Source of the DNA: a virus
Direction: 5' to 3' (one strand)
DNA: 64,000 nt
Virus record (IMG/VR): IMGVR_UViG_3300022468_000627
Coordinates: 27,892 to 91,891 of that record
Both the position numbers and the translations under genes were made by a program. Below are positions 4,184 to 61,934 of this stretch, one piece after another. The notes under the pieces were generated by a model that ran no database searches, was not told the origin of the DNA, and saw only the letters and a program-made list of their open reading frames with translations. Numbering within the stretch: the stretch's first letter is position 1; the number at the start of each line of letters is the position of its first letter.

Positions 4184-4199
4184 ATTCTGCGGTCACGAC
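4184..4199 (-). promoter_or_regulatory. Conserved late-promoter-like motif (copy a)
   Basis: Minus strand GTCGTGAC CG CAGAAT, then 6 nt (CCCACC), then ATG of the holin-like gene. Confidence 0.5.
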
Positions 4200-4209
4200 G
4201 CCGACGAAG

Positions 4210-4764
4210 TCAGGTCTTGATCAGGTAGTTCAACACCAGCGTGGGCTGGGTGTTGTTGTGCGCGCCGCCGCCGCCCTGGCTGGCCGTGGTGGGCGTCGCG
4301 CCGGCCGCCGAGCCCGAGCTGCGCAAGTCGTTGGAGCCCGACCCGGCCGAGGCCGTGGCGCCGCTGATGGCGTGGCTGTGCGCGGGCGTCTGGGCTAGGG
4401 TCAGCGTGTGGGTTTCCGCACCGCCGTTGGCGCCCAGCGTGGCCCCATCCACGCCGCTGCCCGCCGTGGTCAGCCGCGACGCAGCCGAGCCGCCCATGTT
4501 GTCCTTGCCGCCAGGCACGCGGCCGCGCAGGTCGGGCAGGTTGAAGGTGGTCGAGCCGTCGCCGGTGCCATAGGCCGTGCTGATGGCCGCGAACAGCGCC
4601 GCGTAGGTCGTGCGGCTCACCGCTTGGCCATAGCACAGCAGCCAGCCGGTGGGTGCAGTGGAGCCCGCATAGGGCAGAACGACGCCGGCCGGGGCGCCAC
4701 CGAAAGACGGGTTGATGGTGCCGGCGGCGCCGAACAGCGCCCCCAGCTTACTTGCCAGGCTCAT
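4210..4764 (-). CDS. Tail-collar-domain fibre protein
   Basis: VVLPYAGSTAPTGWLLCYGQAVSRTTYAALFAAISTAYGTGDGSTTFNLPDLRGRVP is the classic phage tail-collar signature. ATG 4764 overlaps the upstream stop (ATGA). The track ORF is 5'-extended. Confidence 0.8.
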   Translation of the reverse strand: MSLASKLGALFGAAGTINPSFGGAPAGVVLPYAGSTAPTGWLLCYGQAVSRTTYAALFAAISTAYGTGDGSTTFNLPDLRGRVPGGKDNMGGSAASRLTTAGSGVDGATLGANGGAETHTLTLAQTPAHSHAISGATASAGSGSNDLRSSGSAAGATPTTASQGGGGAHNNTQPTLVLNYLIKT

Positions 4765-5363
4765 ACACCTCCCTTGAAAGAGCGAAACGGATTGATGTGG
4801 GTCGAAATGCCGACGCGGGAGCCCATCACCTCGGCGTTGCCGAGCTTCCAGCCCAGGTACAGGCGGACGTAGCGCGTGCTGGTGAAAAACAGCTGCGCCC
4901 GCAGCATGAAGGCCGAGCCGCCGCCCTTGGCGGTGTCGATGCGCAGCTGCCAGTTGGTCGCGCCGCTGTCCCACGAGCCCGAGCCCCAGGACCGGGTCGA
5001 GAACCCGAACCCGCGCTCAAAGCCCAGGAGGTAGTAGCTCAGGCCATAGGCCGGGTTGCGGATGAGCCACCAGAAGCGCAGGCGGTACTGGGCCCAGCGC
5101 GAACCCGATCGGGCTTTGTCGGCCAGGCCTGCTGGCGTCTTGGCGTCGTACTGCCCCGTGAACCAGCCGGCATCGACGCCATCGTCCCAGGTGCTGAACA
5201 GCTGCAGCCAGCCCCAGAGGTACTGGCGCGGGCCCGGCGCCACGCACCACCGGCTGCTGTCGCGCGTGACCGCGCACAGCGCCAGCAACGGGCTCAGCAG
5301 CCAGGTGATGACGTTGAAAGCGAGCTGCAGGACGAACAGCAGCGGGTAGATCAGGAATCGCAC
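4761..5363 (-). CDS. Hypothetical membrane-anchored protein
   Basis: 200 aa with N-terminal hydrophobic segment MRFLIYPLLFVLQLAFNVITWLLSPLLALCAV. Trp/Gly-rich remainder. Tightly packed in the operon. Confidence 0.6.
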   Translation of the reverse strand: MRFLIYPLLFVLQLAFNVITWLLSPLLALCAVTRDSSRWCVAPGPRQYLWGWLQLFSTWDDGVDAGWFTGQYDAKTPAGLADKARSGSRWAQYRLRFWWLIRNPAYGLSYYLLGFERGFGFSTRSWGSGSWDSGATNWQLRIDTAKGGGSAFMLRAQLFFTSTRYVRLYLGWKLGNAEVMGSRVGISTHINPFRSFKGGV

Positions 5364-5367
5364 ATCG

Positions 5368-5808: not shown

Positions 5809-5814
5809 ACACCA

Positions 5815-6291: not shown

Positions 6292-6300
6292 GATGCTCCC

Positions 6301-7140: not shown

Positions 7141-7631
7141 TACGCGAAGTCCCCCCCACCCAGCATGTTGACGGCCAGCGCGCAGTTGGTGCCGCCGACG
7201 GCCGTCGCCAGGCCGGCATAGATGCGGTAGCCAGCGGGCACCGACAGCAGGCCGAAATCGAAGTCAGCGGGCTGCGTCAGCGCGGCCACGGCAGACATAG
7301 TGGCGGAAGGCACACTCACCTCGCCCAGCAGGATGTTGTTGGCCGCCGTGGTGTTGACGCTGCCGTTGTTGGCCCAGATGCGGATCACGGTGGCGTTGGT
7401 CGCGCCGGATGGTGCCGCGCCGTTGGTGCCGGCGTAGCGCACGCGCAACTTGGGCAGCTGCGAGCCGGCAGCGCCGGCCGTGAAGATCAGCGCCATGGAC
7501 GTGCCAACCGCCTCGGTGCCGTCGTAGGCCTTGGTGCTGGTCATGGCCGTGGAAAGCAGCGCGTTGAGCGCTGCGCCCGCGTTCAGCTGCGTGGGCGCCG
7601 GGCCCTGGTTGAAAACGGTGATTGCTGCCAT
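7140..7631 (-). CDS. Hypothetical tail-fibre-associated protein
   Basis: 163-aa ORF immediately downstream of the fibre gene, with consistent GC3. Confidence 0.6.
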   Translation of the reverse strand: MAAITVFNQGPAPTQLNAGAALNALLSTAMTSTKAYDGTEAVGTSMALIFTAGAAGSQLPKLRVRYAGTNGAAPSGATNATVIRIWANNGSVNTTAANNILLGEVSVPSATMSAVAALTQPADFDFGLLSVPAGYRIYAGLATAVGGTNCALAVNMLGGGDFA

Positions 7632-8740: not shown

Positions 8741-9970
8741 TCACAGAGTAAGCAGTCGCAGATCCCGGACACGCGGGCGCACGGCCACGCCGCCCGTGGT
8801 CAGGTGCAGCTTGCAGCGCACGCGGGCCTCGGTGACGGCGGTCTTCTGGAACTGGTACTCGTAGAGGCCCAGATCGCCGTCGATGAGCTTGGGCGTGCCG
8901 ATCTGGGTCATGGTCAGGTCGCTGTCGCCAACATCCACGCCAGACACCGTGGGCACTACATTGGCGCCGCTCGGGATGATGGCCGAGAAAATCACCTTGG
9001 CCGTGCAGCCGGTCGCGTCGGCGTCGATGGCGGCCGAAATGTAGTCGTCGCTGGCGTGCACGACGCCCTGCACGATTTGGGTGCCAGGGTGCAGCGTGGC
9101 CGAGTTGTTGGCGTTGGAGCGCAGCCGGGCCTTGACGCCGACCGTGCCGGTGGTGGCGGCGCTGAACGCGATGCGCTGGTTGTCGCCGGCCTTCACCACG
9201 GTGCCGTCAGGCAGCGTGATCTCCAGCTCGCCGGTGGCGGCGCTGTGCGGCGACTCGATCATGGCGAGGGTCAGCAGCTCGGTCGCGCCGGTGATGCTGA
9301 CGGTGCCAAGGTCGATCAGGCGCTCGGACTCGGTGTACTGGCGGGCCACGAGGCGGAACGCCAGGTCGCGGTCCTGGTACGCGGTCCAGGTGCTGGCGTT
9401 GGACGAGGACAGCAGCACGCCCACGGTGTAGGGCTGGCTGGTGATCCACTGCTGGGCAGCGGCGTCGAACTTGCCCAGCTCGGCCACGGCCAGCTCGCTC
9501 ACGGCGTCGTTGCAGAGCACCACAATGGCGTATTCGGTGCCGGCCTCCAGGCGGGCTGGCGACGAGAACGCGAAGTTGGTCCACTGGTCGGCGGTGATGC
9601 TGCTGGCGGCCCGGCGGCTGTCGGCCACGATGGTCTGGGTCGGGTAGCCCACCTGGGTCTCGCGGATCTGCACCGACACGGCCGTGGAGCCCACGGCGGT
9701 GAACCACAGATCGACGCCCTCCAGCTGGATGGCCTCGGTGAGCGTGAAGGTCTGCGCGATAGGGTCCACGCTCTGCTGCCAGCGCGTGGTGGTGATCTGT
9801 TGCACCAGGGTGCGGATGTCTTCAATCAGCGTGCCCTGGCCAATGAAACTGGCCGTGGCCTGGCTGCCGCCCTGGCCGGTGAACGACACCTGCTTGGTGC
9901 CGGCCGGCACGTTGGCCGGGATCGTAAATTTCCCGAGAACGACACCGTTCGAGTCAGCGGTAACGGTCAT
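8741..9970 (-). CDS. Baseplate/fibre-associated structural protein
   Basis: 409-aa ORF between the DUF4815-like protein and the fibre. Placed by position only. Confidence 0.6.
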   Translation of the reverse strand: MTVTADSNGVVLGKFTIPANVPAGTKQVSFTGQGGSQATASFIGQGTLIEDIRTLVQQITTTRWQQSVDPIAQTFTLTEAIQLEGVDLWFTAVGSTAVSVQIRETQVGYPTQTIVADSRRAASSITADQWTNFAFSSPARLEAGTEYAIVVLCNDAVSELAVAELGKFDAAAQQWITSQPYTVGVLLSSSNASTWTAYQDRDLAFRLVARQYTESERLIDLGTVSITGATELLTLAMIESPHSAATGELEITLPDGTVVKAGDNQRIAFSAATTGTVGVKARLRSNANNSATLHPGTQIVQGVVHASDDYISAAIDADATGCTAKVIFSAIIPSGANVVPTVSGVDVGDSDLTMTQIGTPKLIDGDLGLYEYQFQKTAVTEARVRCKLHLTTGGVAVRPRVRDLRLLTL

Positions 9971-9984
9971 TGGTGCTCCAAAAA

Positions 9985-11913
9985 TCAGGGCGCGGTCGGC
10001 GTCACGGCCAGGCCGTCAAACGTCACCGAAGTCAGGTTTTCGCCAGGGCCGAAGCCTTCGAGGCGGAAATGCACCTCGATCTGGCGCAGGTACTCCAGCG
10101 TCTTGGTGAGCTGCACCGACTGGATGGACTGGGTCGTGTTCTCGACCGACATGTTCCCCCAGCCCTCGGTGAAGCGCAGCACGATGGGGCTGGTCCAGAT
10201 GACGTTGGTGTCGGTCCAGCGGTCGATGGCGGGCGTCAGCGTGGCCTTGGCGGGCAGCGGCGAAAACGCCAGGTAGGCGTTGATCTTCATGCTGCCCGTG
10301 CGGCGCTCCTGAGCCAGCGCCACGCGCGACGTGAAAGCGCAGGTCTCCGGGCTGGTTACGTCGGCGGTCGGCGTCTTGACCGTGGCGTCGATGCCCATGG
10401 TCAGCTCGCCGTGCGAGATGGCGGCGTACTGGGTCAGGCCCTGGTCGCGTAGGCCATCGGACAGGAACGGGTCGACAAACAGCCCCTTCTTGGCGGCGGC
10501 GTCGCGCTGGGATGCGTCGGCTTTCAGCTTCTGCTCGCTCACCATCAGGATGACGGTGTTCAGGCGGTTGTTGATCGCCTCGATGTCCTGCATGGGCACG
10601 ACGCGCACGCCGTCGTTGATGACGTAGCTGGAGGCCGTCCAGGTCTGCACCACCTGGGCCAGCGGCAGCAGGTTGTTGGGCACGCTGGGTCGCACCGGGT
10701 TGTAGTCGGTGCTGGTGCCCTCGACCCACACGAATTCGCCGTCCTCGTTCAGGCACAGGCGGTCGATGCGCGGCAGCTTGGTGTAGTAGCTGGTCTGGAT
10801 CAGGGTGCCCACCACGGCGCCGGTCACGATGAACCCGTTGTCGTCAACCGCAGTCGGAGTGACCGACATGATGTGATCGTAGGTGACGTCGTAGGACTGG
10901 CCGGGCGCCGGCTCGGCGCCGGTCAGCGACCAGTCCACCTTGCCGGCGGTCAGCTGGTAGTCGGTGCCCTGAACGTAGGTGGTCGCGCCCTGCACCACGG
11001 ACACGATTGCGACCACGGACGTGTCAGGCAGCGGATCCTGGGCGCCCGTGGTGGTGCCGTGGTTTAGCGTGGCCGTGGTGCGCTTGGTGATGCGCACCTG
11101 AGTGATGTTGGCGATCGGCGGCCGCGCCACATCCACACGGAAAGCGCCGGCAGAGCCCGAGTTTTTGGGCTCGCTGTCGATGAACCGGGTCACCGGCACG
11201 GCGTTGCGCGCCAGCCGGCGGCTGGTGGTCACGTCGATGCCGAACCCGTTCACGCGGGCACGGCCGTTGCCGACCGAGAACACCTGGTAGCCGTCCACGC
11301 GGTCAGCCAGGCGGGTGACGCCCAGGCCGCTCACAACGTAGCTGCCGCCGGCGCTGTCGCGGTCATAGCGCGCCAGGGCTTGGGTCACGCCGTCCAACTG
11401 GGGCGGGGCCTCCTTGGCGTTCACGATGCCGTCGGTGACGGTGTAGACCGGGAAGAACTCGCCGACCTGGTCGTCGCCACTCCAGGCCCACACGGGCACG
11501 ACTTTGTAGCGCTCGGCGCCCTGGCGGTTGTAGGCGCGCGACTCGACGGCAGGGTCGAGCAGCGTCGGGTCTTCCACCGAGGTGACGATGGTCGTCTGCA
11601 GGCGCAGGCCGACCGCGATGGTGCCGACGATCGGCACGGTGATGGTGGCCGGGGCCACGCCGCGCACGTTGCCGTTCAGGTAGACGGCGCCGGCCTCGCA
11701 GGTGGTCACGCCGGTGTCGGGGTCCACCACAATGCCGGCATCGCGGATGACACCGCCGTCCTTGAGCATGGCGTCGGCCACACCCTTGAGGGCGTAGGCG
11801 GCGCGCGATTGCATCTCGTCGAGCTCAGCAGACTGCAGCGGCCGGTTCGGAATGAACCGGTGCGACTCATAGTTCTTGGCCGGGTCGAACCGGTTGTAGG
11901 AATTGGTGGTCAT
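9985..11913 (-). CDS. Baseplate structural protein (DUF4815-like)
   Basis: 642 aa. N-terminus NRFDPAKNYESHRFIPNRPLQSAELDEMQS resembles the DUF4815 opening block (from memory). Confidence 0.65.
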   Translation of the reverse strand: MTTNSYNRFDPAKNYESHRFIPNRPLQSAELDEMQSRAAYALKGVADAMLKDGGVIRDAGIVVDPDTGVTTCEAGAVYLNGNVRGVAPATITVPIVGTIAVGLRLQTTIVTSVEDPTLLDPAVESRAYNRQGAERYKVVPVWAWSGDDQVGEFFPVYTVTDGIVNAKEAPPQLDGVTQALARYDRDSAGGSYVVSGLGVTRLADRVDGYQVFSVGNGRARVNGFGIDVTTSRRLARNAVPVTRFIDSEPKNSGSAGAFRVDVARPPIANITQVRITKRTTATLNHGTTTGAQDPLPDTSVVAIVSVVQGATTYVQGTDYQLTAGKVDWSLTGAEPAPGQSYDVTYDHIMSVTPTAVDDNGFIVTGAVVGTLIQTSYYTKLPRIDRLCLNEDGEFVWVEGTSTDYNPVRPSVPNNLLPLAQVVQTWTASSYVINDGVRVVPMQDIEAINNRLNTVILMVSEQKLKADASQRDAAAKKGLFVDPFLSDGLRDQGLTQYAAISHGELTMGIDATVKTPTADVTSPETCAFTSRVALAQERRTGSMKINAYLAFSPLPAKATLTPAIDRWTDTNVIWTSPIVLRFTEGWGNMSVENTTQSIQSVQLTKTLEYLRQIEVHFRLEGFGPGENLTSVTFDGLAVTPTAP

Positions 11914-12424: not shown

Positions 12425-12440
12425 ATTGTGCCGTCACGAC
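12425..12440 (-). promoter_or_regulatory. Conserved late-promoter-like motif (copy b)
   Basis: Minus strand GTCGTGAC GG CACAAT, then an 18-nt leader with AGAGG before ATG 12406. Confidence 0.45.
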
Positions 12441-16507: not shown

Positions 16508-16523
16508 ATTCTGGCGTCACGAC
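16508..16523 (-). promoter_or_regulatory. Conserved late-promoter-like motif (copy c)
   Basis: Minus strand GTCGTGAC GC CAGAAT, then GGGCGC, then ATG 16501. Confidence 0.5.
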
Positions 16524-22602: not shown

Positions 22603-22627
22603 TACATGATCGCCTCACGACTGCGCG

Positions 22628-25838: not shown

Positions 25839-25854
25839 ATTCTCTTGTCACGAC
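25839..25854 (-). promoter_or_regulatory. Conserved late-promoter-like motif (copy d)
   Basis: Minus strand GTCGTGAC AA GAGAAT, then 9 nt, then ATG 25829. Confidence 0.45.
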
Positions 25855-25859
25855 GCCAT

Positions 25860-25875
25860 GGCGTGACGGCAGAAT
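25860..25875 (+). promoter_or_regulatory. Conserved late-promoter-like motif (copy e, plus strand)
   Basis: Plus strand GGCGTGAC GG CAGAAT, then GGCCGC, then ATG 25882. Back-to-back with copy d. Confidence 0.45.
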
Positions 25876-28408: not shown

Positions 28409-30639
28409 GCCTTGAATGAACGTCCAGCGACGATGGTAAATTCACGACCGCCAGCGCCCGCCCGGGCCCGGCGGGCCGGCGCGACGGTGGTGCGCGACAC
28501 CCGTGCGGCCGCCGTGACTCCAGCCGATCGGGCGGCTTCCATGGTGAGCGTCCGGTCGGCCGGGGTGGCGTTCGCGACGAAGTAGACAGCGCCCCCGCCT
28601 GAGCCCTGCCGCTGCAAAGCCAGCGTGCCGGTGATCTTGTGCACTTGGAACACGCGCGCGCTGGCGCTCAACGGCTCAGCCACACCGCCATCCCCGGCCA
28701 GCTCGTGCGCCTGCTCAATCCCCCCAGCCGCTGCAGCCGCGGCCTGGGCCATGGCAGCGGCCAGCAGCTTGTGCACTTGGGCCAGCGCAGCATCGAGGCT
28801 TGCCGCCGTCTGCAGGCAGTCTGCCGCAGCGACTTCCTGGTTGCGGGTGACCCGCCCGGCGGCCGCCGCAGCATCCTGGGATGTGGCCGAGGAAGCCAGC
28901 TGGTGCACACCCAGCACCACACCCGGCGCACAGGAAGCCGACTGGGCCGACCCGGCGCCGCGCAGGTTGTGGGCCAGCGCGATGACGCCGGCGCCAGAGG
29001 TCTGCGATTGGGTGGACGCCTGGCCGGCCATGCCCAGCGCCTGCGCCAGCGCGCCGGTCGACGAGATCGCCGCCGCCGACGAAGGAGCCCCGGCCAGGGG
29101 GTGCACCTGCCGGGCGACCCCGGCCCCGCTCGCGGCAGACTGCGCCGCAGGCGCGCCGGCCAGCACGTGAGCGACCACCACGGCTCCGGCAGCGGATGCG
29201 TGGGCTTCGGTCGCGGTGGCGCCAGCCAGGATGTTGACGGCGACCAGCGCGCCGGTGCCGGCTTGGTTTGCCTGGGAGACTCCGGCCCCGGCCAGCGCCT
29301 GCGCCTGGGTGATGGTGCCTGCACCAGCCGCGCCGGCCTGGGACGATGCGCCGCCGGCGAGCTGGTGCACCTGGGCCACCTGCCCGGGGCTGCACACCGG
29401 CTGCTGGGTGACGCTTGCGCCAGCGGTGGCCGTGGCGAGAACGACGACGCCGACCGACGAGGCAGCCGCCTGCTGGGCGCCCTGCCCGGCCAGGGCGTGC
29501 AGCTGCACGGCGGCGCTTGCCGATGACGCGCCGGCTTGGGAAGCCGACGCGGCGGCAAGCACCTGGGCCTGCCAAATGGCGCCGGCTGCAGCCGCGCCCG
29601 TCTGGGAGCAGGCCGCCGCCGCCAGCACGTGCGCCTGGGTTTCAGCACCGGTGCTGCTGGCGCTTGCCTGCTGGCACGCCGCGCCGGCCAGCAGCTGAAC
29701 CTGCACCACGGCCGCCGCGCCGCTGGAGGCGCCCTGCGAGGACGTGGCCCCAGCCAGCACAGCGGTCTGGCCGGCCGCGCCAGCCGTGGCCGACGCGGAT
29801 TGCAGCGCCCCGGCGGCGGCGAGGATGTGCACCAGGGAGGCCGCGCCCGCGCCGCTGGCGGCCAACTGCTGGGCAGACGCTGCCGCCAAAGCCTGAATCT
29901 GGGTCACGGCGCCCGCCGCCGAGCCGGCCGCTTGAGTGGATCCGGCGCCGGCGATCGCGTGCACCTGGGCCGCGCCGCCCGTGCCTGCCGTGCTGGCCTG
30001 CGAAGACGCAGCGCCGAGCAGGGCCAGGGCCTGCACCACGGTGCCGGTTCCCGATGCGTTGGCCTGGGTCGATCCGGCGCCAACCAGCGCCACGGCCAAG
30101 GCCACGGCGCCAGCGCTGGAGGCGTTCCCCTGAGAGCTTGCCGAGCCTGCGGTGGCGTGCACCTGGCCGGCAACGCCGGTCGCAGAGGATGCCGTCTGGC
30201 TGGCGCCCGCTGCGGCCAGAACCTGCACGCCGGTAACGGCGCCGGTTGCCGACGACTGCGCCTGGCTGGAGGCCGCCGCCTGCAGGGCCTGGGTGAGCAC
30301 GACGACGCCAGTGCTGGCCGTCTGAGCCTGAGAGGTGGCCGACACGGCCAGGGCGTGGACCTGGGTCTCGACGCCGGTGCCGGCAGCGTTGGCCTGGGTG
30401 CTGCCAGCCCCGGCCAGCAGCGCCACCTGGGAGGCCGTGCCGGTGCTGGTCGTGGCAGCCTGGGTGACGGACGTCCCGGTGAGGGAGATGGTCGACGGCG
30501 AGGCCGCCGCGTTCAGGAAGAAGGCCGCAGCCAGGTTCTTGACGAGCGGGCTTTTCGCCACCAGCCGGCTGGCGAGCCGGGAGGCGCCGCCGCGCCCGGT
30601 TCGGCCAGCCCCGGGGAAGCCTCGGCGCAGCCGGGCCAT
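28405..30639 (-). CDS. Ala/Gly/Ser/Gln-rich repeat protein (29 tandem 22-residue units), putative fibrous virion protein
   Basis: 744-aa ORF tightly coupled on both sides (3-nt gap upstream, TTGA/ATG overlap downstream). Basic N-terminus and a non-repetitive 57-aa C-terminus. Confidence 0.65.
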   Translation of the reverse strand: MARLRRGFPGAGRTGRGGASRLASRLVAKSPLVKNLAAAFFLNAAASPSTISLTGTSVTQAATTSTGTASQVALLAGAGSTQANAAGTGVETQVHALAVSATSQAQTASTGVVVLTQALQAAASSQAQSSATGAVTGVQVLAAAGASQTASSATGVAGQVHATAGSASSQGNASSAGAVALAVALVGAGSTQANASGTGTVVQALALLGAASSQASTAGTGGAAQVHAIAGAGSTQAAGSAAGAVTQIQALAAASAQQLAASGAGAASLVHILAAAGALQSASATAGAAGQTAVLAGATSSQGASSGAAAVVQVQLLAGAACQQASASSTGAETQAHVLAAAACSQTGAAAAGAIWQAQVLAAASASQAGASSASAAVQLHALAGQGAQQAAASSVGVVVLATATAGASVTQQPVCSPGQVAQVHQLAGGASSQAGAAGAGTITQAQALAGAGVSQANQAGTGALVAVNILAGATATEAHASAAGAVVVAHVLAGAPAAQSAASGAGVARQVHPLAGAPSSAAAISSTGALAQALGMAGQASTQSQTSGAGVIALAHNLRGAGSAQSASCAPGVVLGVHQLASSATSQDAAAAAGRVTRNQEVAAADCLQTAASLDAALAQVHKLLAAAMAQAAAAAAGGIEQAHELAGDGGVAEPLSASARVFQVHKITGTLALQRQGSGGGAVYFVANATPADRTLTMEAARSAGVTAAARVSRTTVAPARRARAGAGGREFTIVAGRSFKA
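28579..30489 (-). repeat. In-frame tandem repeat array, period about 66 nt (22 aa), 29 degenerate units
   Basis: Units such as QVHAIAGAGSTQAAGSAAGAVT / QVHQLAGGASSQAGAAGAGTIT / QAHVLAAAACSQTGAAAAGAIW. Manual segmentation sums exactly to residues 51-687. Confidence 0.8.
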
Positions 30640-31881: not shown

Positions 31882-31897
31882 ATTCTGGCGTCACGAC
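31882..31897 (-). promoter_or_regulatory. Conserved late-promoter-like motif (copy f)
   Basis: Minus strand GTCGTGAC GC CAGAAT directly after terminator 31899-31924. A 36-nt leader with AGGAG precedes ATG 31845. Confidence 0.5.
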
Positions 31898-32566: not shown

Positions 32567-32582
32567 CTTACTGGTCAGCCGA

Positions 32583-35623: not shown

Positions 35624-35639
35624 ATTTTGTTGTCACGAC
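35624..35639 (-). promoter_or_regulatory. Conserved late-promoter-like motif (copy g)
   Basis: Minus strand GTCGTGAC AA CAAAAT, then 7 nt, then ATG 35616. Confidence 0.5.
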
Positions 35640-40754: not shown

Positions 40755-40770
40755 ATCGTAGGGTCACGAC
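40755..40770 (-). promoter_or_regulatory. Conserved late-promoter-like motif (copy h)
   Basis: Minus strand GTCGTGAC CC TACGAT, then GGGCGG, then ATG 40748. Confidence 0.5.
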
Positions 40771-47295: not shown

Positions 47296-47300
47296 GCGGC

Positions 47301-47324
47301 GGCACCAGTGGCGGGACTGGTGCC
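47301..47324 (-). promoter_or_regulatory. 5'-leader hairpin just upstream of the methylase-helicase start codon
   Basis: Minus strand GGCACCAGU-CCCGCC-ACUGGUGCC (9-bp stem) ends 5 nt before ATG 47295. Confidence 0.4.
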
Positions 47325-47325
47325 G

Positions 47326-47341
47326 ATTGTGCTGTCACGAT
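47326..47341 (-). promoter_or_regulatory. Conserved late-promoter-like motif (copy i)
   Basis: Minus strand ATCGTGAC AG CACAAT. Overlaps the stop codon of 47335..48558. Confidence 0.4.
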
Positions 47342-49718: not shown

Positions 49719-49734
49719 ATGGTGCCATCACGAC
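49719..49734 (-). promoter_or_regulatory. Conserved late-promoter-like motif (copy j)
   Basis: Minus strand GTCGTGAT GG CACCAT, then GCGAGC, then ATG 49712. Directly after terminator 49735-49763. Confidence 0.5.
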
Positions 49735-49763
49735 AAAAAGCCGGGGCGGTCTCCCACCCCGGC
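49735..49763 (-). terminator. Intrinsic terminator
   Basis: Minus strand GCCGGGG-(10-nt loop)-CCCCGGC followed by UUUUU. Confidence 0.65.
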
Positions 49764-49928
49764 CTTCGCCGCCTGACGCGCGGTATCGGTCTGGCCCCAG
49801 GCGAGCGGTGCCCGAAGACACCACCAGGAGACGCCGCCCACCCATGAAACGGCACGCCCGTACCAGACTGCGGCCCTTACATCCCGAGGATCCGCTGCGG
49901 TCGACACCCAACCATGCCCTTGCGGGCG
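49735..49928 (-). ncRNA. Predicted small RNA of about 195 nt (promoter motif k to terminator 49735-49763)
   Basis: Discrete unit bounded by motif copy k and an intrinsic terminator, with no credible ORF. Long-range pairing GCCGCCCGC / GUGGGCGGC. Confidence 0.4.
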
Positions 49929-49934
49929 GCCCCC

Positions 49935-49950
49935 AGTGTGGCGTCACGAC
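49935..49950 (-). promoter_or_regulatory. Conserved late-promoter-like motif (copy k), not followed by an ORF
   Basis: Minus strand GTCGTGAC GC CACACT directly after terminator 49951-49976. Confidence 0.45.
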
Positions 49951-49976
49951 AAAAAGAAACCCGCACGAGGCGGGTT
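49951..49976 (-). terminator. Intrinsic terminator
   Basis: Minus strand AACCCGC-CUCGU-GCGGGUU followed by UCUUUUU. Confidence 0.65.
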
Positions 49977-50740
49977 GAAAAGCGGCCGAAGCCACTCAGG
50001 GAGGAGGTTGATGGTGCAGCGCTCGAAGCCCAACGCAATGCGCCAGTGTCGATCCCGACGCCGCCAAAACAGGCCCAGGTTCAATCGACTTACCCCGAGG
50101 CCAACGGCTCTTGCACACCATCACATCAGCGGGCCGGGCTTGATACCGGCTCCACGCGGGGTAACAACGGGCCGCAGGCCGGACCAACCGCCCACTTTCC
50201 CCCGCCCGCTCACTCCTGGCCCTGGCCGCTGGTCGGCTGTACCTCTTGTGCTGGCCTAATGTTCAGGCGTTTCCTTCAGCGCCGCCGCTGATGTGATGGT
50301 CCTCGTCTTTCCGAGGCGTCTCCCGTGGGTGGGTCGACCTGTGGTTTGCATTTATCGGGGCAGACCCACACAAACTGCTACCCGTGCTCGTTGATAGCGG
50401 CCAGGAACCCCCGACCCAAACCATCAAGCGTGATGACTGGCTGGCGCCGACGTGCTTCCCGGGCAACCTAGTGGTCGGAGCTGAAACCGTCTCTCTGTGT
50501 GCCAATCATCACACTTGATGGCCCTGGTTTACAAAGCCAGGCATCAAGGCCGGTTGCCCATCCGGCGCACCCTGAATTCGCGCAAGGCGTATAGGGGCGG
50601 CTCCCATCGCTGGGTTCTGCTGATTTCCCCGCAGTCTCCTACGGTAAGGGGCTCAACTGGCCCAGCAGACGTGTTCCCGGTTTGATTCCCAGCCCGGCCT
50701 GCAAGCGTCGTCGGAATGGTTGAATTCTAACCCAAAACGA
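49951..50740 (-). ncRNA. Candidate large structured non-coding RNA (about 790 nt) downstream of the alarmone hydrolase gene
   Basis: No ORF with coding-type GC3, and visibly lower GC. A 16-bp helix (50117-50132 / 50285-50300). A 20-bp helix (50421-50440 / 50502-50521) whose two non-Watson-Crick positions are G.U on the minus strand but C.A on the plus strand. Ends at an intrinsic terminator. Confidence 0.4.
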
Positions 50741-54754: not shown

Positions 54755-54770
54755 AGCGTAGCGTCACGAC
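54755..54770 (-). promoter_or_regulatory. Conserved late-promoter-like motif (copy l)
   Basis: Minus strand GTCGTGAC GC TACGCT, then TGCGGA, then ATG 54748. Confidence 0.5.
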
Positions 54771-54788
54771 AACAGCCGTCCGTGGCGC

Positions 54789-54818
54789 TTGCGCTTTTTT
54801 GATTATTTGCAGGATAAT
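54789..54818 (+). promoter_or_regulatory. Possible sigma70-type promoter for the plus-strand block
   Basis: TTGCGC, 18-nt spacer, GATAAT, in an AT-rich divergent intergenic region. Confidence 0.3.
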
Positions 54819-54890
54819 TACCCCATCGCAGCAGCGCAGTCAAGAAACTGATTTCGACTCTGTTTCTGGTTGCCAGCAAAGCAAGCATTC

Positions 54891-56764: not shown

Positions 56765-56883
56765 CTGCCAATCATTTTCGACGACGAAAAAACAACAGCG
56801 GCATCAACGTTTTGGGCTTTTTTGATTCATAATTGGCCCCGGGTCGGGCGCGGTGCCTGACCAGATTTCAAACAGGAGTTTCG

Positions 56884-57156
56884 ATGAACAAATCCGAATT
56901 GGTCGAGCTGATTTCCAAGGACGCCGACATCAGCAAGGCTGCCGCTGGCCGGGCGCTGCAATCCGTCGTGGATCGCACCACCGCCGCGCTGCGCAGAGGC
57001 GACACCGTCGCCATCACCAGCTTCGGCACCTTCGGCGTGACCAAGCGCGCCGCCCGCACCGGCAAGAACCCGCGCACCGGCGAGTCCCTGACCATCGCCG
57101 CCCGCAAGTCGCCGTCGTTCAAGCCCAGCAGTGTCCTCAAGGACTCGCTGAACTGA
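56884..57156 (+). CDS. HU/IHF-family DNA-binding protein (HU-like)
   Basis: 90 aa, MNKSELVELISK..ISKAAAGRAL..GFGTF-type FGTFGVTKRAARTGKNPRTGESLTIAARKSPSFKPS. SD CAGGAG upstream. Confidence 0.85.
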   Translation: MNKSELVELISKDADISKAAAGRALQSVVDRTTAALRRGDTVAITSFGTFGVTKRAARTGKNPRTGESLTIAARKSPSFKPSSVLKDSLN

Positions 57157-58556: not shown

Positions 58557-58680
58557 CCCGCCCCACCTAGAACTTGAGCGCAATCCTTCCATGCGCTGGC
58601 GGAATCCGTCCTACCATGGGATGGACTCCAGATTGCCAAGCTGCAATGAGGCTCGAAGCAAAACGAAGCGGCTGGCAGGC

Positions 58681-59043
58681 ATGCCCCATCTCCTCACCAA
58701 AAAACGCCTAAGTCGAATCATCGAATTCATCGAGGCCAACCTTGGAAATGGTTTCGATCTAAACGATCTGTCCAACGCCGCTGCGCTCAGCCGCTTCCAT
58801 CTGTGCCGATCGTTCAAGTGCACTACTGGCATGACGCTTTCGCAGTACGTCATGAGCCGGAAGATCGAGGCCGCCAAAACCATGCTGGCCGACGAGGAGG
58901 CGTGCCTGGTGATGATCGCTGGCACCTGCGGATTTGCCAGCCAGAGCCACATGTGCACAGCCTTCAAGAAGGCCACGGGCATGACGCCGTCGGCCTACCG
59001 CGCCCAGCTCAAAACAGACCCCGTATCTGTTTTGAGCGCCTGA
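58681..59043 (+). CDS. Stand-alone AraC-family HTH domain protein (MarA/SoxS/Rob-size)
   Basis: 120 aa from ATG 58681. LSNAAALSRFHLCRSFKCTTGMTLSQYVMSRKIEAAKTML and IAGTCGFASQSHMCTAFKKATGMTPSAYR are the two AraC HTH units. Low GC (29 of the first 60 nt). Confidence 0.8.
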   Translation: MPHLLTKKRLSRIIEFIEANLGNGFDLNDLSNAAALSRFHLCRSFKCTTGMTLSQYVMSRKIEAAKTMLADEEACLVMIAGTCGFASQSHMCTAFKKATGMTPSAYRAQLKTDPVSVLSA

Positions 59044-59103: not shown

Positions 59104-61236
59104 TCAGCGCGCCACGAACAGCACGCAACCCTGGTCCTTGGCCTGAACGAGGATGTCGCGGTCGGCGCAGCGGCCATCCTTGAACGCCGAGCACCGGCCG
59201 CACACCTGGCCGGGCGGCAGCTCCTCGATCATGGCCGTCACCGCCGTGGGCAGGCCGGGCATGTTCAGGCTCTCGGCCTTGGCGCGCATCTCGGCCTGGT
59301 GGGAGCCGCCCTCGGGGATCAGGAACGAGGCCGTGCCGTGCGAGCGGGCCCAGGCCACATCGCAGAGCATGTTGGCGTAGGAAAAGTGGGGGTCGATGCC
59401 GACCTTCTTCACGCTGCGCTTGTACTGGTTGGTCTCGTCGTCCTTCTCGGCCACCAGGGCGGTTTTCGTGAAGTGGTGGAACGCCCGGGGCAGGACCGGC
59501 AGCAGCTGGCGCTGGCCCTTCTCGATGACCTCCTGCACCAGGCCCTGCGGGTCGGGGAACACGCACATGGGGTCGGGCGCCGTGAAGCGGGCCATCGAGA
59601 CCTGCATGCACTTGTACTGGTCCATGCGCAGGGTCCAGCGGTCGCGGGCCTCCTCGCTGGTGCGCCGGTCGCTGGTGTTCAGCTTGGGGGCGTCGCCCCA
59701 GATGATCATGTCCTCCTTGAGCGAGCCGAACGAGTCGCAGATGAACACCCGGCCAGGGTGCCGGGCCGCGAACTTCTTAGCGTCGTTGTAGTTCGGGTTG
59801 ATCTCGACCACGCACACCGCGATGCCGAACTGCTCCATGAGCTCGGAGCTGCGCCCGAACGGGTCGGCGCTGTAGGTTTCCTCGACGTGCACCACAGCCT
59901 GGCGGCCGTCGGGCAGCCGCTTCTTGATGACGTGCACGTTGAAGTTGCCCATCTGGTCGATGCCCATGAAGTAGCCATGGCCGCGCGTCTCCCACTGCAC
60001 GCCCAGCTGCCGGCCCACCGCCGCGCAGCGCGCCAGGTGCTCCAGGGTCACGGGCACCTGCGACGGGTCAAGGTACGGCATGCCGAGCTTCCGGTTGTAG
60101 AAGTTCTTCATGTCCGTGGCCGTGTTGTAGGCCGAGATGATTTCCTCGGCGCTGATCGTCGGGCTCAGGAACTGGGGGAAGTGGATCGAGCGGATGCGCA
60201 GCTTGCGCTCGCGCCGCGGCACGTGGAGCTGCACGCCCGGGTCCTTCTCGGGGTGCTCTGCGATCCACTCGCCATGCTGGGGGTCCTCCAGCCAATGGCC
60301 GTTGGGGCACACGTAGCGGTAGGTGTCGCGCTCCTTGTCGAAGCGGATGCACTCGGGGAAGTAGCGCACCAGGGGCTTGGCCGCGCCGCAGGTGGGGCAG
60401 CGCGAGTGAAACTCGTGCTGGGTGCCCAGCTTGTACCAATGGTGGATGTCGGCGTCCGGCCAGTTCGCCGTCGAGCCCATGATGACCGACCGGATCCGGC
60501 TGGCCGAGACACGCTCCAGCGTCTTCTCGATCTGGGCGATCGTCATTTCCTGGACTTCGTCAAACGACAAAACGTCCATGGGCATAGACTCGGTGGTGGC
60601 CCGGCCCGAGGTCCACGCGAACAGGAACACGGCTTTCGCGATCTGGCGCAGGCCAACGTTGCCCTCGCCGGACTTGCGGCCGCTACCGTCGGTGGCCTCC
60701 TGGGTCATGAGCGCGTGCACCTCGGGCACGCTGCGCACGGCGTCGATGAAGCGGATCGACGACTTGATCTGCGCCAGGCGCTGGTCGGGCAGGAACATGC
60801 CGACCGTGCACCGGCCGATGTCCTCGCCGAACTTGAGGCCCATATAGATCGCCGCCAGCATCTCCATGACGGTGAACCCCACCTGGGCGCACTTCATGAG
60901 CACCAGCATGTAGCGGTAGGCCTCATCTTCGGTGCTGGGCACCTGGTCGTAGATCCACGCCATGGCCGGGCGGTCGTCCAGCGTGAACGGCTTGCCGTCC
61001 ACCTTGAGGCCGTCGCTGCCGTCCGGCTTGGTGCCGCGCGCCAGCTTCTCGCACCACTGGCGGAAGTTCATCCCCGCCGGGATCACCTCCTTCTCGTCGA
61101 CCCGGAAACCGGTCTTGATCTCCAGCTCGGTTATGGCCCGCTGCAGGCCCAGGTGAAAGTCGGGCATCACCCGCCGGTTACCGCTGCCGGTGCCCGTGCC
61201 CCGGTAATACAGGGCGTTCTTGGAGCGGCCGAACAC
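59104..61236 (-). CDS. Terminase large subunit (lambda GpA-like)
   Basis: 710 aa. Walker-A-like LMKCAQVGFT, DVLSFDEVQEM (Walker B-like), and a C-terminal Cys cluster CGRCSAFKDGRC. Confidence 0.85.
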   Translation of the reverse strand: MFGRSKNALYYRGTGTGSGNRRVMPDFHLGLQRAITELEIKTGFRVDEKEVIPAGMNFRQWCEKLARGTKPDGSDGLKVDGKPFTLDDRPAMAWIYDQVPSTEDEAYRYMLVLMKCAQVGFTVMEMLAAIYMGLKFGEDIGRCTVGMFLPDQRLAQIKSSIRFIDAVRSVPEVHALMTQEATDGSGRKSGEGNVGLRQIAKAVFLFAWTSGRATTESMPMDVLSFDEVQEMTIAQIEKTLERVSASRIRSVIMGSTANWPDADIHHWYKLGTQHEFHSRCPTCGAAKPLVRYFPECIRFDKERDTYRYVCPNGHWLEDPQHGEWIAEHPEKDPGVQLHVPRRERKLRIRSIHFPQFLSPTISAEEIISAYNTATDMKNFYNRKLGMPYLDPSQVPVTLEHLARCAAVGRQLGVQWETRGHGYFMGIDQMGNFNVHVIKKRLPDGRQAVVHVEETYSADPFGRSSELMEQFGIAVCVVEINPNYNDAKKFAARHPGRVFICDSFGSLKEDMIIWGDAPKLNTSDRRTSEEARDRWTLRMDQYKCMQVSMARFTAPDPMCVFPDPQGLVQEVIEKGQRQLLPVLPRAFHHFTKTALVAEKDDETNQYKRSVKKVGIDPHFSYANMLCDVAWARSHGTASFLIPEGGSHQAEMRAKAESLNMPGLPTAVTAMIEELPPGQVCGRCSAFKDGRCADRDILVQAKDQGCVLFVAR

Positions 61237-61237
61237 G

Positions 61238-61912
61238 TCAGACCTTCATCATGTCGAGGGTCATGCCGGTGCGCGCGTTGAGCGCCGCCAGGCGCTGCAT
61301 GATCCGCTGCTGGCACTCGGGGCTTTCCTTCCCGATCTCGTCGATGATGGTCTCGTAGAAGTTCTGCATCGTCCGCAGGTCCCACACCTCCTGCACCGCC
61401 TTGATGGCGGTCTCCAGCAGGTGCGCGCGCCGCACGATGGACTTGTCGAACGCCGCCGGGTTGTTGATCGCCTCGACGGGGTTGCCGTCCTTGTCGCGCT
61501 TCAAGGCGTAGGTGCGCAGCATCTGGGCGTCGCCATACAGGCGTTGGATTTCCGCAACAAAGTCGATCGTGCGCAGCCCTTCGTCGCCGTGCTTGGCGAT
61601 GTAGGCCGGGCTGGGCGCGGCCGGCAGGTGGTCGACGATCGGCTCAGCCTCGGGCGCCAGCTTCTCGCGCATCTTCGAGCCGTTGCGCGTGGTGGGGAAC
61701 TTCTTGACGCTGGCCGCCAGCCGGTCGCGGGCCCGGTTCAGGTCGGTCGGCCGGGGCGTCTCGTTGCGGGCCTGGCGCAGCCAACGCCACTTGGTCTGGT
61801 CGTGCACGTCCGGGAACTGGTCGAGCACGAGGCGCCAGTCTTTGGCGCCGTGGACGGCCATGTGCGCGTGCACGGCCTCGATGAATTTCGCTTTGCTGGG
61901 ATGGTCTGCCAT
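61238..61912 (-). CDS. Putative terminase small subunit
   Basis: 224-aa ORF abutting the large-subunit start. Called on position and size only. Confidence 0.5.
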   Translation of the reverse strand: MADHPSKAKFIEAVHAHMAVHGAKDWRLVLDQFPDVHDQTKWRWLRQARNETPRPTDLNRARDRLAASVKKFPTTRNGSKMREKLAPEAEPIVDHLPAAPSPAYIAKHGDEGLRTIDFVAEIQRLYGDAQMLRTYALKRDKDGNPVEAINNPAAFDKSIVRRAHLLETAIKAVQEVWDLRTMQNFYETIIDEIGKESPECQQRIMQRLAALNARTGMTLDMMKV

Positions 61913-61918
61913 GCCCCG

Positions 61919-61934
61919 ATAGTAGCGTCACGAA
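61919..61934 (-). promoter_or_regulatory. Conserved late-promoter-like motif (copy m)
   Basis: Minus strand TTCGTGAC GC TACTAT, then CGGGGC, then ATG 61912. Confidence 0.5.

Follow-up and report, generated by a model that had tools for sequence, protein, structure and literature searches.

The 64,000-nt window, the whole stretch of DNA that was analysed, carries many copies of a 16-mer that is probably the late promoter of a phage family, read with a phage factor and serving leaderless first genes. The motif consists of an 8-nt box, a 2-bp gap and a hexamer (GTCGTGAC-NN-nAnnAT). In the mechanism that we propose, the host's sigma-70-type holoenzyme would read the hexamer as its -10 element, and the asymmetric box GTCGTGAC at -22 to -15 would replace the missing -35 element. 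The box would be read by a factor that the phage encodes and produces earlier in infection, either an activator/appropriator or a very divergent sigma. Transcription would start 7 nt (sometimes 8) after the hexamer T, and in about half of the copies the start nucleotide would be the A of the ATG. The first genes of late operons (portal, protease, small-terminase (terS) position, holin-like, helicase, minor head, and the baseplate and tail operons) would thus be leaderless, with the downstream genes of these operons using ordinary ribosome sites; the remaining copies would give leaders of 12-74 nt, many with a ribosome site or a 5′ hairpin.

The window is part of a temperate myovirus of about 94 kb whose host is a proteobacterium; the phage encodes an integrase and is 75% identical to Bordetella phage PHB04. 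Its hosts belong to the Pseudomonadota and not to the Actinobacteria.

Motif enrichment and placement

With at most one mismatch, the 16-mer GTCGTGACNNNANNAT occurred 16 times in the window against 0.52 expected, a number that none of 100 shuffles equalled. The box alone was found 10 times (3.1 expected). At least 13 copies had been claimed in the initial annotation; its quoted sequences and coordinates, in which minus-strand positions denote the motif 5′ end, were all correct on re-reading, and its list lacked the copies at 2188-2203 (+) and 28433-28448 (-). Non-coding DNA, which makes up 7.5% of the window, held 14 of the 16 copies (binomial P about 2e-14), the other two lying within the final codons of the upstream gene, and all 16 faced a downstream gene. 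Consensus sigma-70 promoters showed no enrichment in the window. The exact composite GTCGTGAC-NN-CACAAT-N6-ATG gave 32 scattered single matches in 596 Gb of bacterial genomes, where about 69 were expected by chance, and is therefore no general host signal.

Table 1 Copies of the putative promoter in the window, with hexamer-to-ATG distances or predicted leaders
Sequence	Position	Strand	Distance or leader	Context
variant box GTCGGGAC AC CAGAAT	2188..2203	+	6 nt (tgaacc) to ATG 2210	71-aa DksA/TraR-like zinc-finger protein (PHROG 54 match)
GTCGTGAC CG CAGAAT	4184..4199	-	6 nt to ATG 4177	holin-like gene: 3-transmembrane protein upstream of GH19 endolysin (2894..3517)
GTCGTGAC GG CACAAT	12425..12440	-	18-nt leader with AGAGG ribosome site, ATG 12406	virion structural protein; tail-fibre genes next
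GTCGTGAC GC CAGAAT	16508..16523	-	6 nt to ATG 16501	baseplate/virion protein operon; upstream stop codon ends 1 nt before box
degenerate GTCGTGAG GC GATCAT	22606..22621	-	terminator-like hairpin, then Shine-Dalgarno site and ATG 22547	function doubtful
GTCGTGAC AA GAGAAT	25839..25854	-	9 nt to ATG 25829	operon with tail sheath and tube
GGCGTGAC GG CAGAAT	25860..25875	+	6 nt to ATG 25882	
GTCGTGAA TT TACCAT	28433..28448	-	30-nt leader, ATG 28402	in end of upstream gene; adaptor/'tail fibre' homologue
GTCGTGAC GC CAGAAT	31882..31897	-	36-nt leader with AGGAG, ATG 31845	right after terminator hairpin
GTCGTGAC AA CAAAAT	35624..35639	-	7 nt to ATG 35616	about 25 nt after terminator; head maturation protease, followed by scaffold-like and major capsid genes that each have a Shine-Dalgarno site
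GTCGTGAC CC TACGAT	40755..40770	-	6 nt to ATG 40748	1522-aa helicase
ATCGTGAC AG CACAAT	47326..47341	-		putative promoter copy for 2065-aa DarB-like methylase-helicase
DarB-like gene leader	47296..47325	-	30 nt, ATG 47295	perfect 10-bp hairpin from predicted +1 to 4 nt before ATG; without Shine-Dalgarno site
GTCGTGAT GG CACCAT	49719..49734	-	6 nt to ATG 49712	right after terminator; minor head/MuF-like
GTCGTGAC GC CACACT	49935..49950	-		right after terminator; without downstream ORF
GTCGTGAC GC TACGCT	54755..54770	-	6 nt to ATG 54748	portal
TTCGTGAC GC TACTAT	61919..61934	-	6 nt to ATG 61912	small-terminase position, preceding large terminase (59104..61236)

Of the genes, the protease was confirmed as such, homology to PHB04 confirmed the names portal and helicase as well as DarB-like, the MuF gene is a homologue of 'minor head protein' genes, and the names holin and terS rest on the features in Table 1, the latter on position only. 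Hairpins lie before the copies with 5′ ends at 31897, 35639, 49734 and 49950, in agreement with the terminators noted earlier; at 22621, also listed initially as close to a terminator, the hairpin follows the motif, and in PHB04 it stands before the box. Such a terminator-like hairpin immediately 3′ of the motif was also seen at two copies in relatives. RNA from the copy at 49935 would run for about 190 nt, as far as the terminator before the 49719 copy. These copies with a hairpin behind them, and the one at 49935 without a gene, are odd for the proposed promoter.

Profile of the putative promoter

In a profile of 138 motif copies, neither a -35 element nor a TG at -15/-14 was seen. Relative to the predicted start, the box spans -22 to -15, and the hexamer has the consensus CACAAT, in which A (-11) and T (-7) are invariant. 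At -12, C is commoner than T, which is poor for sigma-70. T never occurs at -8, and the preferred bases are C at -1 and A at +1. Leadered copies retain A as the most frequent base at hexamer+7 (14/37), with a pyrimidine at hexamer+6 in 26/37.

It is improbable that host RNA polymerase alone, with a primary or alternative sigma, reads the motif and that the box is just an unusual spacer or extended -10. The hexamer is -10-like, and the motif is used from Burkholderiales to Enterobacterales and therefore must interface with very conserved host machinery. However, this reading is at odds with the absence of a -35 element and of the TG, and with the lack of enrichment of the composite in bacterial genomes. 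In addition, the phage is temperate, and constitutive expression of virion and lysis genes would be impossible unless a repressor sat on every copy. To our knowledge, the motif matches no known host sigma consensus.

A repressor or other phage DNA-binding protein might instead use the 8-mer mainly as an operator, as C1 does in P1, whose record lists more than a dozen dispersed asymmetric operators. The temperate lifestyle fits this possibility, and a protein bound at the box, right beside the -10 element, could obstruct polymerase. However, operators accompany complete promoters, and nothing else here supplies upstream recognition. The early sigma-70-type promoters are marked by a different repeated element (TAATCAAA(T/A)TTGAG-like), and the fixed distances of 2 bp from box to hexamer and 6 nt from hexamer to ATG are promoter geometry. 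We therefore regard a primary operator role as very improbable and favour the late promoter read with a phage factor.

Conservation in related phages

PHB04, the Pseudomonas phages Dolphis and Touem01, Aeromonas ST4, a Paraburkholderia contig (L033) and 22 metagenomic relatives all have this box and hexamer with the same spacing, and ECML-606-1 and fHe-Yen8-01 share in this conservation. More than 25 related genomes carry an invariant box within variable flanks at orthologous genes. Upstream of the portal gene, a comparison of 20 related viral loci revealed an invariant 8-mer and a conserved spacing between differing flanks. The divergent pair formed by the leftward 25839 and rightward 25860 copies is kept in PHB04, Dolphis, ECML-606-1 and fHe-Yen8-01, and the G variant of the 2188 box is present at the orthologous PHB04 site (88125). 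The arrangement at the terS position recurs in Dolphis (across the record ends), Touem01 and L033, whereas the PHB04 copy before this gene has a 30-nt leader. Three phages (the window phage, PHB04 and ECML-606-1) have a 5′ hairpin of different sequence in the DarB-like leader, beginning at the predicted +1 in the first two and one nucleotide later in ECML-606-1, which supports the predicted start.

Start codons and ribosome sites

The hexamer is exactly 6 nt from an ATG in eight window copies, 7 nt in one and 9 nt in another (Table 1), and each of these ten ATGs is the first start codon of a long ORF. Among 91 distinct copies in the family, the ATG is 6 nt away in 33 and 7 nt away in 11 (together 48%), whereas random positions are followed by an ATG at 5-7 nt in only 2% of cases. 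Enrichment, orientation, intergenic placement, conservation and this spacing peak support the phage-specific promoter class without -35 that was originally proposed, which would serve virion, packaging and lysis genes with starts at or beside the A of the ATG; the distribution of Shine-Dalgarno sites and the starts mapped in a distant Thermus relative (both below) support it too.

The ten motif-adjacent ATGs also lack Shine-Dalgarno sites, as had been stated. Their mean pairing energy was -2.6 kcal/mol compared with -5.6 for 38 other genes, and none of the ten reached -6 or below compared with 17 of the 38 (p = 0.0014). Shine-Dalgarno sites occur only at motif copies with a leader. If translation is leaderless as predicted, these messengers, beginning at the start codon, would be unusual for phages of such hosts. 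Leaderless mRNAs are rare in Pseudomonadota, and E. coli-type hosts translate them inefficiently. Leaders indeed predominate in the enterobacterial relatives: those of E. coli and Yersinia keep the box with leaderless copies at 1/9 and 1/4.

The position directly before start codons without a Shine-Dalgarno site might also suit an RNA-level translation or processing signal within a longer transcript. We consider this scarcely credible. In about half of the copies, 12-74 nt separate the motif from the ATG and contain an ordinary ribosome site, in many cases of the GGAG type; several copies directly follow intrinsic terminators, and one has no ORF. Moreover, an nAnnnT hexamer with 6-7-nt spacing indicates transcription initiation, as measured in Thermus phage Lalka27a (bioRxiv 10.64898/2026.04.20.719267).

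Candidate phage factors

The annotations of PHB04 and Dolphis include no RNA polymerase gene, suggesting that the late promoter would be served by host RNA polymerase. The initial annotation had envisaged a dedicated late sigma factor or an activator; a phage sigma that replaced host sigma-70, as T4 gp55 or SPO1 gp34 does, would make an activator at the box unnecessary. The invariant -11A/-7T and the adjacent upstream element would fit one sigma with region-2 and region-3-like contacts, and many proteins conserved in the family lack a functional assignment. A further point is the distant relationship of the virion module to that of SPO1-like phages (portal about 33% identical), which use phage sigmas. 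However, no sigma-70 domain (Pfam, E < 0.05) or PHROGs sigma annotation was detected among the conserved non-structural proteins tested, and neither a gp55-like nor an Lpa-like protein was found. Lalka27a shares the promoter architecture and was likewise reported to lack a recognisable sigma (bioRxiv 10.64898/2026.04.20.719267). Therefore, a phage sigma in place of sigma-70 seems unlikely, and reading of the box by a phage factor together with the host holoenzyme is preferred.

As a speculation, the leading candidate for this factor may be a pair of zinc proteins encoded outside the window (PHB04 gp072/gp071), to which the observations point weakly. Among 50,697 phage records, homologues of gp072 were present in all nine family members and in no others, a distribution common to every core gene of the family. 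Mecenats66 has both the most divergent gp072 homologue and the weakest motif. The gp072 gene is the first after a sigma-70-like promoter adjoining the origin; the origin iterons vary from phage to phage, unlike gp072 and the box. The gp072 family comprises 899 cluster representatives, some fused to gp071 and some with an N-terminal winged-helix-like segment. The protein had no match in Pfam, PHROG or PDB, and its confident AlphaFold model (pLDDT 84) showed no fold match in PDB and no sigma-like fold, the latter also arguing against a phage sigma.

Comparison with known late promoters

The initial annotation compared the motif with an extended -10 and with T4 late promoters. The box differs from the canonical TGn extended -10, and at -22 to -15 its nearest analogue is the '-22 box' of P1 rather than the T4 late promoters. 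An experimental parallel is Lalka27a, a distant relative that has portal, capsid, protease, helicase and DarB-like genes in common with the family. It has 16 late promoters of the form TAGGGT-N6-AUG without a -35 element. For about half of these the start has been mapped, 6 nt beyond the -10, and the majority of transcripts are leaderless (bioRxiv 10.64898/2026.04.20.719267); we re-read these promoter sequences. The mapped late starts of Lalka27a and the predicted starts of the window motif thus have the same arrangement of -10 element, 6 nt and AUG.

Distribution and placement of the motif

A 16-bp motif, composed of an 8-mer box (GTCGTGAC), two further nucleotides and a -10-like hexamer (nAnnAT), recurs in the window. 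Allowing up to one mismatch, the 16-mer GTCGTGACNNNANNAT has 16 copies where 0.52 would be expected, and no dinucleotide-preserving shuffle out of 100 came near 16 copies. The 8-mer alone occurs 10 times (3.1 expected), always on the minus strand. When every copy was re-read with its flanks, the motif sequences quoted in the initial annotation all proved correct, and two copies beyond its list were recovered (first two motif rows of the table). With genes delimited by codon-position GC and by homology to Bordetella phage PHB04, non-coding DNA, only 7.5% of the window, holds 14 of the 16 copies (P about 2e-14). The remaining two copies lie within the last codons of the upstream gene, and all 16 face a downstream gene.

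The hexamer had been described as lying mostly 6 nt before an ATG. Indeed, this gap is exactly 6 nt in eight copies, and it is 7 nt in one and 9 nt in another. All ten of these motif-adjacent starts are ATG, and each is the earliest possible start of its long ORF. Leaders of 18-58 nt follow five window copies, and AGAGG or AGGAG occurs within the leaders of the copies at 12440 and 31897. The proposed lack of a Shine-Dalgarno sequence was borne out by pairing the 20 nt upstream of each ATG with the anti-Shine-Dalgarno sequence, which gave -2.6 kcal/mol for the ten motif-adjacent genes versus -5.6 kcal/mol for 38 other genes (p = 0.0014). A weaker 5′ structure in leaderless mRNAs was not significant within the window, and consensus sigma-70 promoters were not enriched there. 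That the motif acts as a signal at the RNA level is barely conceivable, because its distance to the ATG is variable and ribosome sites intervene.

Probable promoter architecture and predicted start sites

In a profile of 138 aligned copies, a near-invariant G T C G T G A C occupies -22 to -15 (C or T at -15), followed by variable positions -14 and -13 (G at -14 in 48% of copies) and a hexamer of the pattern C/T-A-c-a-A/C-T with the consensus CACAAT. C is preferred at -1 and A at +1, and positions -6 to -2 and those past +3 are unconserved. Conservation is zero upstream of -24. Therefore, a -35 element is absent, as had been noted. The bases -11A and -7T are those flipped out of the helix by sigma-70-family proteins, 6 nt is the canonical gap between a -10 element and +1, and transcription starts favour a pyrimidine at -1 with A at +1. 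Copies with a leader have A at hexamer+7 in 14 of 37 cases and a pyrimidine at hexamer+6 in 26 of 37, and ribosome sites are confined to such copies. Motif copies were found behind terminator hairpins, in agreement with the terminator proximity reported before.

A hairpin of -15 to -18 kcal/mol in the leader of the DarB-like gene begins exactly at the predicted +1 in the window and PHB04, and one nucleotide later in Escherichia coli phage ECML-606-1. It ends 3-4 nt before the AUG, without a Shine-Dalgarno sequence, and the structure is kept in the three phages by three different sequences. It would look like the expected 5′-terminal stabilising stem.

The -11A/-7T bases of the hexamer, the canonical 6-nt gap, the -1/+1 preference detectable even in leadered copies, the copies behind terminators, the confinement of ribosome sites to leadered copies and the onset of the DarB-like hairpin at the predicted +1 support the view that the 16-bp motif is a phage promoter, whose transcripts would begin at the ATG in the leaderless copies. 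Thus the promoter and leaderless interpretation of the initial annotation is supported with corrections, its start sites and late timing being predictions from sequence. Alternatively, the box might be a dispersed repressor operator, but this is highly improbable, since nothing else could provide the upstream recognition and a different repeated element is found at early promoters.

Besides these promoter features, a GC-rich hairpin with a T-run directly follows a promoter copy and precedes the start codon in three genomes, so that a terminator would stand downstream of its own promoter. These hairpins could be attenuators, 5′ stabilisers or decayed sites. The copy said to have no ORF indeed has none downstream. 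It lies between two terminator-like hairpins that end a stretch of about 1 kb without a credible ORF, running from an HD-phosphohydrolase-like gene to the minor-head-protein gene, and its predicted transcript is about 190 nt. PHB04 carries a phosphatase gene at this place, and Rfam gave nothing significant for the window or for this gene-free stretch at 49.7-50.7 kb, perhaps the remnant of a gene or a non-coding RNA. A conserved block ('tcaattat..gcaaata(a/c)tcaaaaa..gcgcaag') immediately precedes the portal promoter and faces the rightward genes that diverge from it; more than 12 related loci have this block at the equivalent position. It resembles TAATCAAATTTGAG repeats at the early promoter of a Paraburkholderia relative and is possibly an immunity operator or early promoter; a repeat search of the window's early regions found no convincing operator repeats.

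Coordinates of the features in the window and in related genomes
Feature	Genome	Coordinates	Strand	Gene order or remark
Tyrosine integrase	window	223..1494		1
Motif copy	window	2188-2203	+	
Motif copy	window	28433-28448	-	
Motif copy between two hairpins	window	49935-49950		no ORF downstream
DksA/TraR-like zinc-finger protein, 71 aa	window	2210-2425	+	2-3, adjoins integrase, then lysis cassette
Tail fibre, baseplate, tape-measure, tube, sheath	window			4
Adaptor, capsid, protease; then 1522-aa helicase	window			5-6
Ulx-like and DarB-like (2065 aa); minor head protein; portal	window			7-9
Short rightward cluster with HU-like and AraC-like genes	window			10
HU/TF1-like DNA-binding protein	window	56833-57156	+	rightward cluster, portal-terminase interval
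AraC/MarA-type two-HTH protein, 150 aa	window	58591-59043	+	rightward cluster, portal-terminase interval
Large terminase and small-terminase-position gene	window			11
DarB-like leader hairpin	window	47296-47325	-	
DarB-like leader hairpin	PHB04	32556-32585		
DarB-like leader hairpin	ECML-606-1	about 53721-53749		
Hairpin and T-run after promoter copy	window	22570-22621	-	
Hairpin and T-run after promoter copy	Dolphis	28081-28124		
Hairpin and T-run after promoter copy	ECML-606-1	about 7513-7559		
Stretch without credible ORF	window	49735-50740	-	
Conserved block upstream of portal promoter	window	54788-54830	-	
Motif copy upstream of annotated gp066 start	PHB04	59525-59549		L002 9525-9549
Origin-like region adjoining gp072	PHB04	61555-62145		
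Origin-like region adjoining gp072	Dolphis	65875-66688		
Origin-like region adjoining gp072	ECML-606-1	79699-80205		
Origin-like region adjoining gp072	L033 (Paraburkholderia contig)	9373-10000		

Host context and regulatory genes of the window

At a DNA identity of about 75%, the window (GC 67%) is collinear with the 94-kb myovirus vB_BbrM_PHB04, a Bordetella phage of the genus Phabquatrovirus; further matches are to Pseudomonas phages Dolphis and Jeremy and to Aeromonas phage ST4. One family-specific gene has homologues in Paraburkholderia and Caballeronia genomes. A portal search of species-representative genomes gave no relative, and neither an identical protein record nor a matching plasmid was found. 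An actinophage context was ruled out, the nearest relatives infecting Bordetella, Pseudomonas, Aeromonas and enterobacteria. This kinship indicates a proteobacterial rather than an actinobacterial host, and therefore the leaderless arrangement is more unusual than may have been assumed initially.

The DksA/TraR-like gene is served by a box variant, GTCGGGAC, which the orthologous site in PHB04 shares. DksA/TraR-type proteins dock in the secondary channel of RNA polymerase and influence promoters whose discriminators are GC-rich, as those of the window's predicted late promoters are. The AraC-type gene, whose product is possibly a lysogenic-conversion regulator, is shared with PHB04 and Dolphis and missing from ECML-606-1; ST4 has an AraC-family regulator by annotation.

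Conservation among related phages

All relatives examined carry the signal. PHB04 has some 20 copies, the 6-nt gap again separating them from the portal, protease, baseplate and other genes, and Dolphis has about 17, one of them 6 nt before the terminase ATG and spanning the record ends. Pseudomonas phage Touem01, ST4, Yersinia phage fHe-Yen8-01, ECML-606-1 and a 94-kb Paraburkholderia contig are carriers too. Upstream of the portal gene, the 8-mer is invariant in 20 viral contigs whose portal proteins are 55-95% identical, with both flanks freely variable. The spacing to the ATG is 6 or 7 nt at all but one of these loci, the single exception having a 25-nt leader that carries GGAG.

Pooling all genomes gave 91 distinct strict copies. 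An ORF-opening ATG follows at 6 nt in 33 and at 7 nt in 11 of them (44 of 91 together), compared with an ATG at 5-7 nt for only 2% of random positions; in the rest a leader of 12-74 nt intervenes, often with a GGAG-like site. The proportion of strict copies with an ATG at 5-8 nt is 6/10 in the window, 6/11 in PHB04, 5/11 in Dolphis, 6/8 in Touem01 and 3/4 in ST4, and 1/9 in ECML-606-1 and 1/4 in fHe-Yen8-01. Morganella phage Mecenats66 has no strict copies and two variant copies in 41 kb. Since the leaderless share differs among hosts, the promoter is independent of the leaderless arrangement, a form that certain hosts, but not enterobacteria, seem to tolerate or favour.

In 596 Gb of bacterial genomes, the composite GTCGTGAC-NN-CACAAT-N6-ATG gave 32 scattered singletons, whereas about 69 were expected by chance, and it is therefore no general bacterial signal. 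That the host polymerase reads the motif on its own is very unlikely, given this absence from bacterial genomes and the lysis and virion genes that a temperate phage would thereby leave to its host.

Two further observations concern annotation. In PHB04, an ATG 78 nt ahead of the annotated gp066 start has a motif copy 6 nt in front of it; some database start codons among these phages may be wrong, and the motif could correct them. The exact composite motif is also present close to one end of each of two contigs (L047 and L055) from a Gammaproteobacteria MAG (A5-S03_163); these contigs may represent a further member of this phage family.

Search for a putative factor reading the box

The promoter class proposed in the initial annotation is supported, but its dedicated late sigma factor or activator was not recovered, among the sequences searched, as a homologue of any known sigma or of Lpa, the late activator of phage P1. 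The annotations of PHB04 and Dolphis list neither an RNA polymerase nor a sigma factor, and Pfam and PHROG scans of conserved non-structural proteins revealed no sigma domain; highly divergent sigmas can escape such scans, and about 30 kb of the phage genome lie beyond the window. A phage sigma rather than an activator reading these promoters, a variant of the same model, is possible but rather unlikely. Few proteins conserved in PHB04, Dolphis and ECML-606-1 are neither structural nor obviously replicative, namely gp071, gp072, gp104 and gp108 (PHB04 numbering).

Three proteins encoded in the window were considered and set aside as a universal factor. The AraC-type protein is absent from ECML-606-1, where the motif persists; no PHB04 counterpart of the HU-like protein was detectable; and no DksA/TraR-like protein was detected in ECML-606-1. 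For gp104, a resemblance to CueR/MerR was insignificant (E = 0.26) and was discounted.

The genes of gp072 and gp071, located outside the window, are the first behind a sigma-70-like promoter, in an operon running toward the terminase genes. gp072 (173 aa) has several conserved CxxC pairs, two of which form a clear CxxC...CxxC zinc site, and gp071 (95 aa) is a zinc ribbon. Identity to gp072 exceeds 50% across the best 120 of 226 homologues. Among 50,697 phage records, gp072 is present in exactly the nine family members, a pattern common to any core gene of the phage family, and its most divergent copy belongs to Mecenats66, the phage with the weakest motif. The wider family counts 899 representatives, including some natural gp072-gp071 fusions and some members with an N-terminal winged-helix-like segment (Pfam hits below threshold). 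gp072 itself had no Pfam, PHROG or PDB sequence match, and its confident AlphaFold model showed neither a similar PDB fold nor a sigma-like fold. On the basis of distribution and position gp072 is a candidate, and together with gp071 it tentatively ranks as the best candidate for the factor reading the box.

An origin-like region, an AT-rich core flanked by 6-12 iterons, adjoins gp072 in four genomes. Its iterons vary between phages (GGATACC, GGTAACC, CCGTTCC). A role of gp072 as an origin-binding initiator, suggested by the adjoining iterons, was judged less likely, since the iterons differ between phages and gp072 and the box do not.

In a possible, still doubtful scenario, the gp072/gp071 zinc family, with its 899 representatives, would retarget host RNA polymerase to the box at -22 to -15, and in the phages of Burkholderiales, Pseudomonas and Aeromonas the opening gene of every late operon would routinely be expressed from a leaderless message. 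If so, gp072/gp071 would be a previously unrecognised phage zinc-protein family of no known fold, and leaderless initiation would work with much greater efficiency in these Gram-negative hosts than expected from the E. coli paradigm, or else the phage would change the translation apparatus late in infection.

Implications

Full-text searches found no promoter or transcription accounts for PHB04, Dolphis, Touem01, Mecenats66, ECML-606-1 or fHe-Yen8-01, and literature searches gave no transcriptome for any family member; the 8-mer occurred in the literature only inside primers. The motif offers a regulatory map (promoters, operon starts and corrected start codons) for a widespread group of roughly 90-kb temperate myoviruses that includes Phabquatrovirus PHB04, Dolphis, Jeremy, Touem01, ST4, ECML-606-1, fHe-Yen8-01 and many prophages and metagenomic contigs. 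It also points to a factor that would reprogram bacterial RNA polymerase via an unusual promoter position. With the same promoter and genes predicted to be leaderless in the Pseudomonas, Bordetella and Aeromonas phages and leadered in the E. coli and Yersinia phages, the family provides a natural comparison for Gram-negative leaderless translation. As a compact 16-bp factor-dependent promoter, the motif could become an orthogonal expression part.

Comparison with known systems

The T4 late class is defined by a -10-region element (TATAAATA) alone, with no -35 and no upstream box; it needs the phage sigma gp55 (with gp33 and the sliding clamp), and its transcripts have leaders. The likeness lies in a phage-specific late class without a -35. 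Pfam and PHROG scans of the conserved non-structural proteins found no phage sigma of the gp55 or SPO1 gp34 type. Extended -10 (TGn) promoters of sigma-70 likewise function without a -35 through contacts just upstream of the hexamer, but their TG at -15/-14 is absent here, where the conserved bases lie at -22 to -15. Promoters of T7-type single-subunit RNA polymerases were rejected: no RNA polymerase is annotated in PHB04, Dolphis or the Thermus phage Lalka27a, and the conservation expected through +1 to about +6 was not seen in the profile. Gram-negative leaderless mRNAs, in which the AUG is the 5′-terminal triplet and no Shine-Dalgarno sequence is present, are known from lambda cI (transcribed from PRM) and Tn1721 tetR. 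These are isolated, weakly expressed regulators, whereas here the first genes of most late operons would be concerned, across a whole phage family.

For the reading of a box, phage P1 is, by analogy, the nearest conceptual precedent. P1 and the phage of the window are both temperate myoviruses of about 94 kb with DarB/Ulx-type genes, a divergent promoter pair and about a dozen late promoters, in which a -10 hexamer is combined with a short spacer-region box that replaces the -35. The annotated P1 record lists eleven late promoters of the form AAGTGACTT-N4-TAnnnT. They are activated by Lpa, whose gene is driven by an early, operator/repressor-controlled promoter just upstream of the packaging genes. 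The hexamer type agrees (TAnnnT in P1, nAnnnT here, with no -35 in either), and the pentamer GTGAC is common to AAGTGACTT and GTCGTGAC. However, the P1 box is a 9-bp inverted repeat (AAGTnACTT) centred near -22 and 4 bp upstream of the hexamer, whereas GTCGTGAC is an asymmetric 8-mer 2 bp upstream of it; as both box and gap differ, the common GTGAC lies 4 bp further upstream in P1. Dependence on host SspA is among the defining features of the P1 class, and in the P1 sequences examined the late transcripts start 19-42 nt or more ahead of their genes. A tblastn search with Lpa (gp10) against the window and PHB04 gave chance hits only (E > 3), PHROG scans of 30 proteins from the window and PHB04 turned up nothing Lpa-like, and PHB04 virion proteins have no P1 match except the DarB-like and tape-measure/transglycosylase proteins.

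The closest to experimental support for leaderless late starts comes, again by analogy, from Lalka27a, which has in common with this family the portal (35% identity), capsid, protease, sheath, helicase and DarB/Ulx-like genes. Its late promoters, 16 in number, have TAGGGT as the -10 element, keep a C at -25 and lack a -35; for half of them the mapped starts fell 6 bp downstream of the -10, most transcripts are leaderless, the authors infer an unknown phage factor, and the phiYS40 late promoters are grouped with this type by citation (bioRxiv 10.64898/2026.04.20.719267). Re-reading of the Lalka27a sites gave TAGGGT-N6-ATG before the orthologous portal and helicase genes and TAGGGT-N7 before the protease (GTG start) and DarB-like genes. 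Both systems thus place many copies of a -10-like element 6 nt before the start codons of late genes, with no -35 and with few terminators among these genes. They differ in that Lalka27a has TAGGGT with C at -25 and no GTCGTGAC box, compared with a CACAAT-like hexamer here, that its host is Thermus, where leaderless mRNAs are common, and that its start sites were measured, those of the window family being predicted. No gp072/gp071 homologue was detectable in Lalka27a.

Against this background, a -10 element combined with a phage-specific upstream box (P1) and leaderless late transcripts (Thermus phages) are already known. What is new is the sequence of the box, its position at -22 to -15, the apparent absence of a known activator, and the systematic use of predicted leaderless starts in phages of Pseudomonadota.
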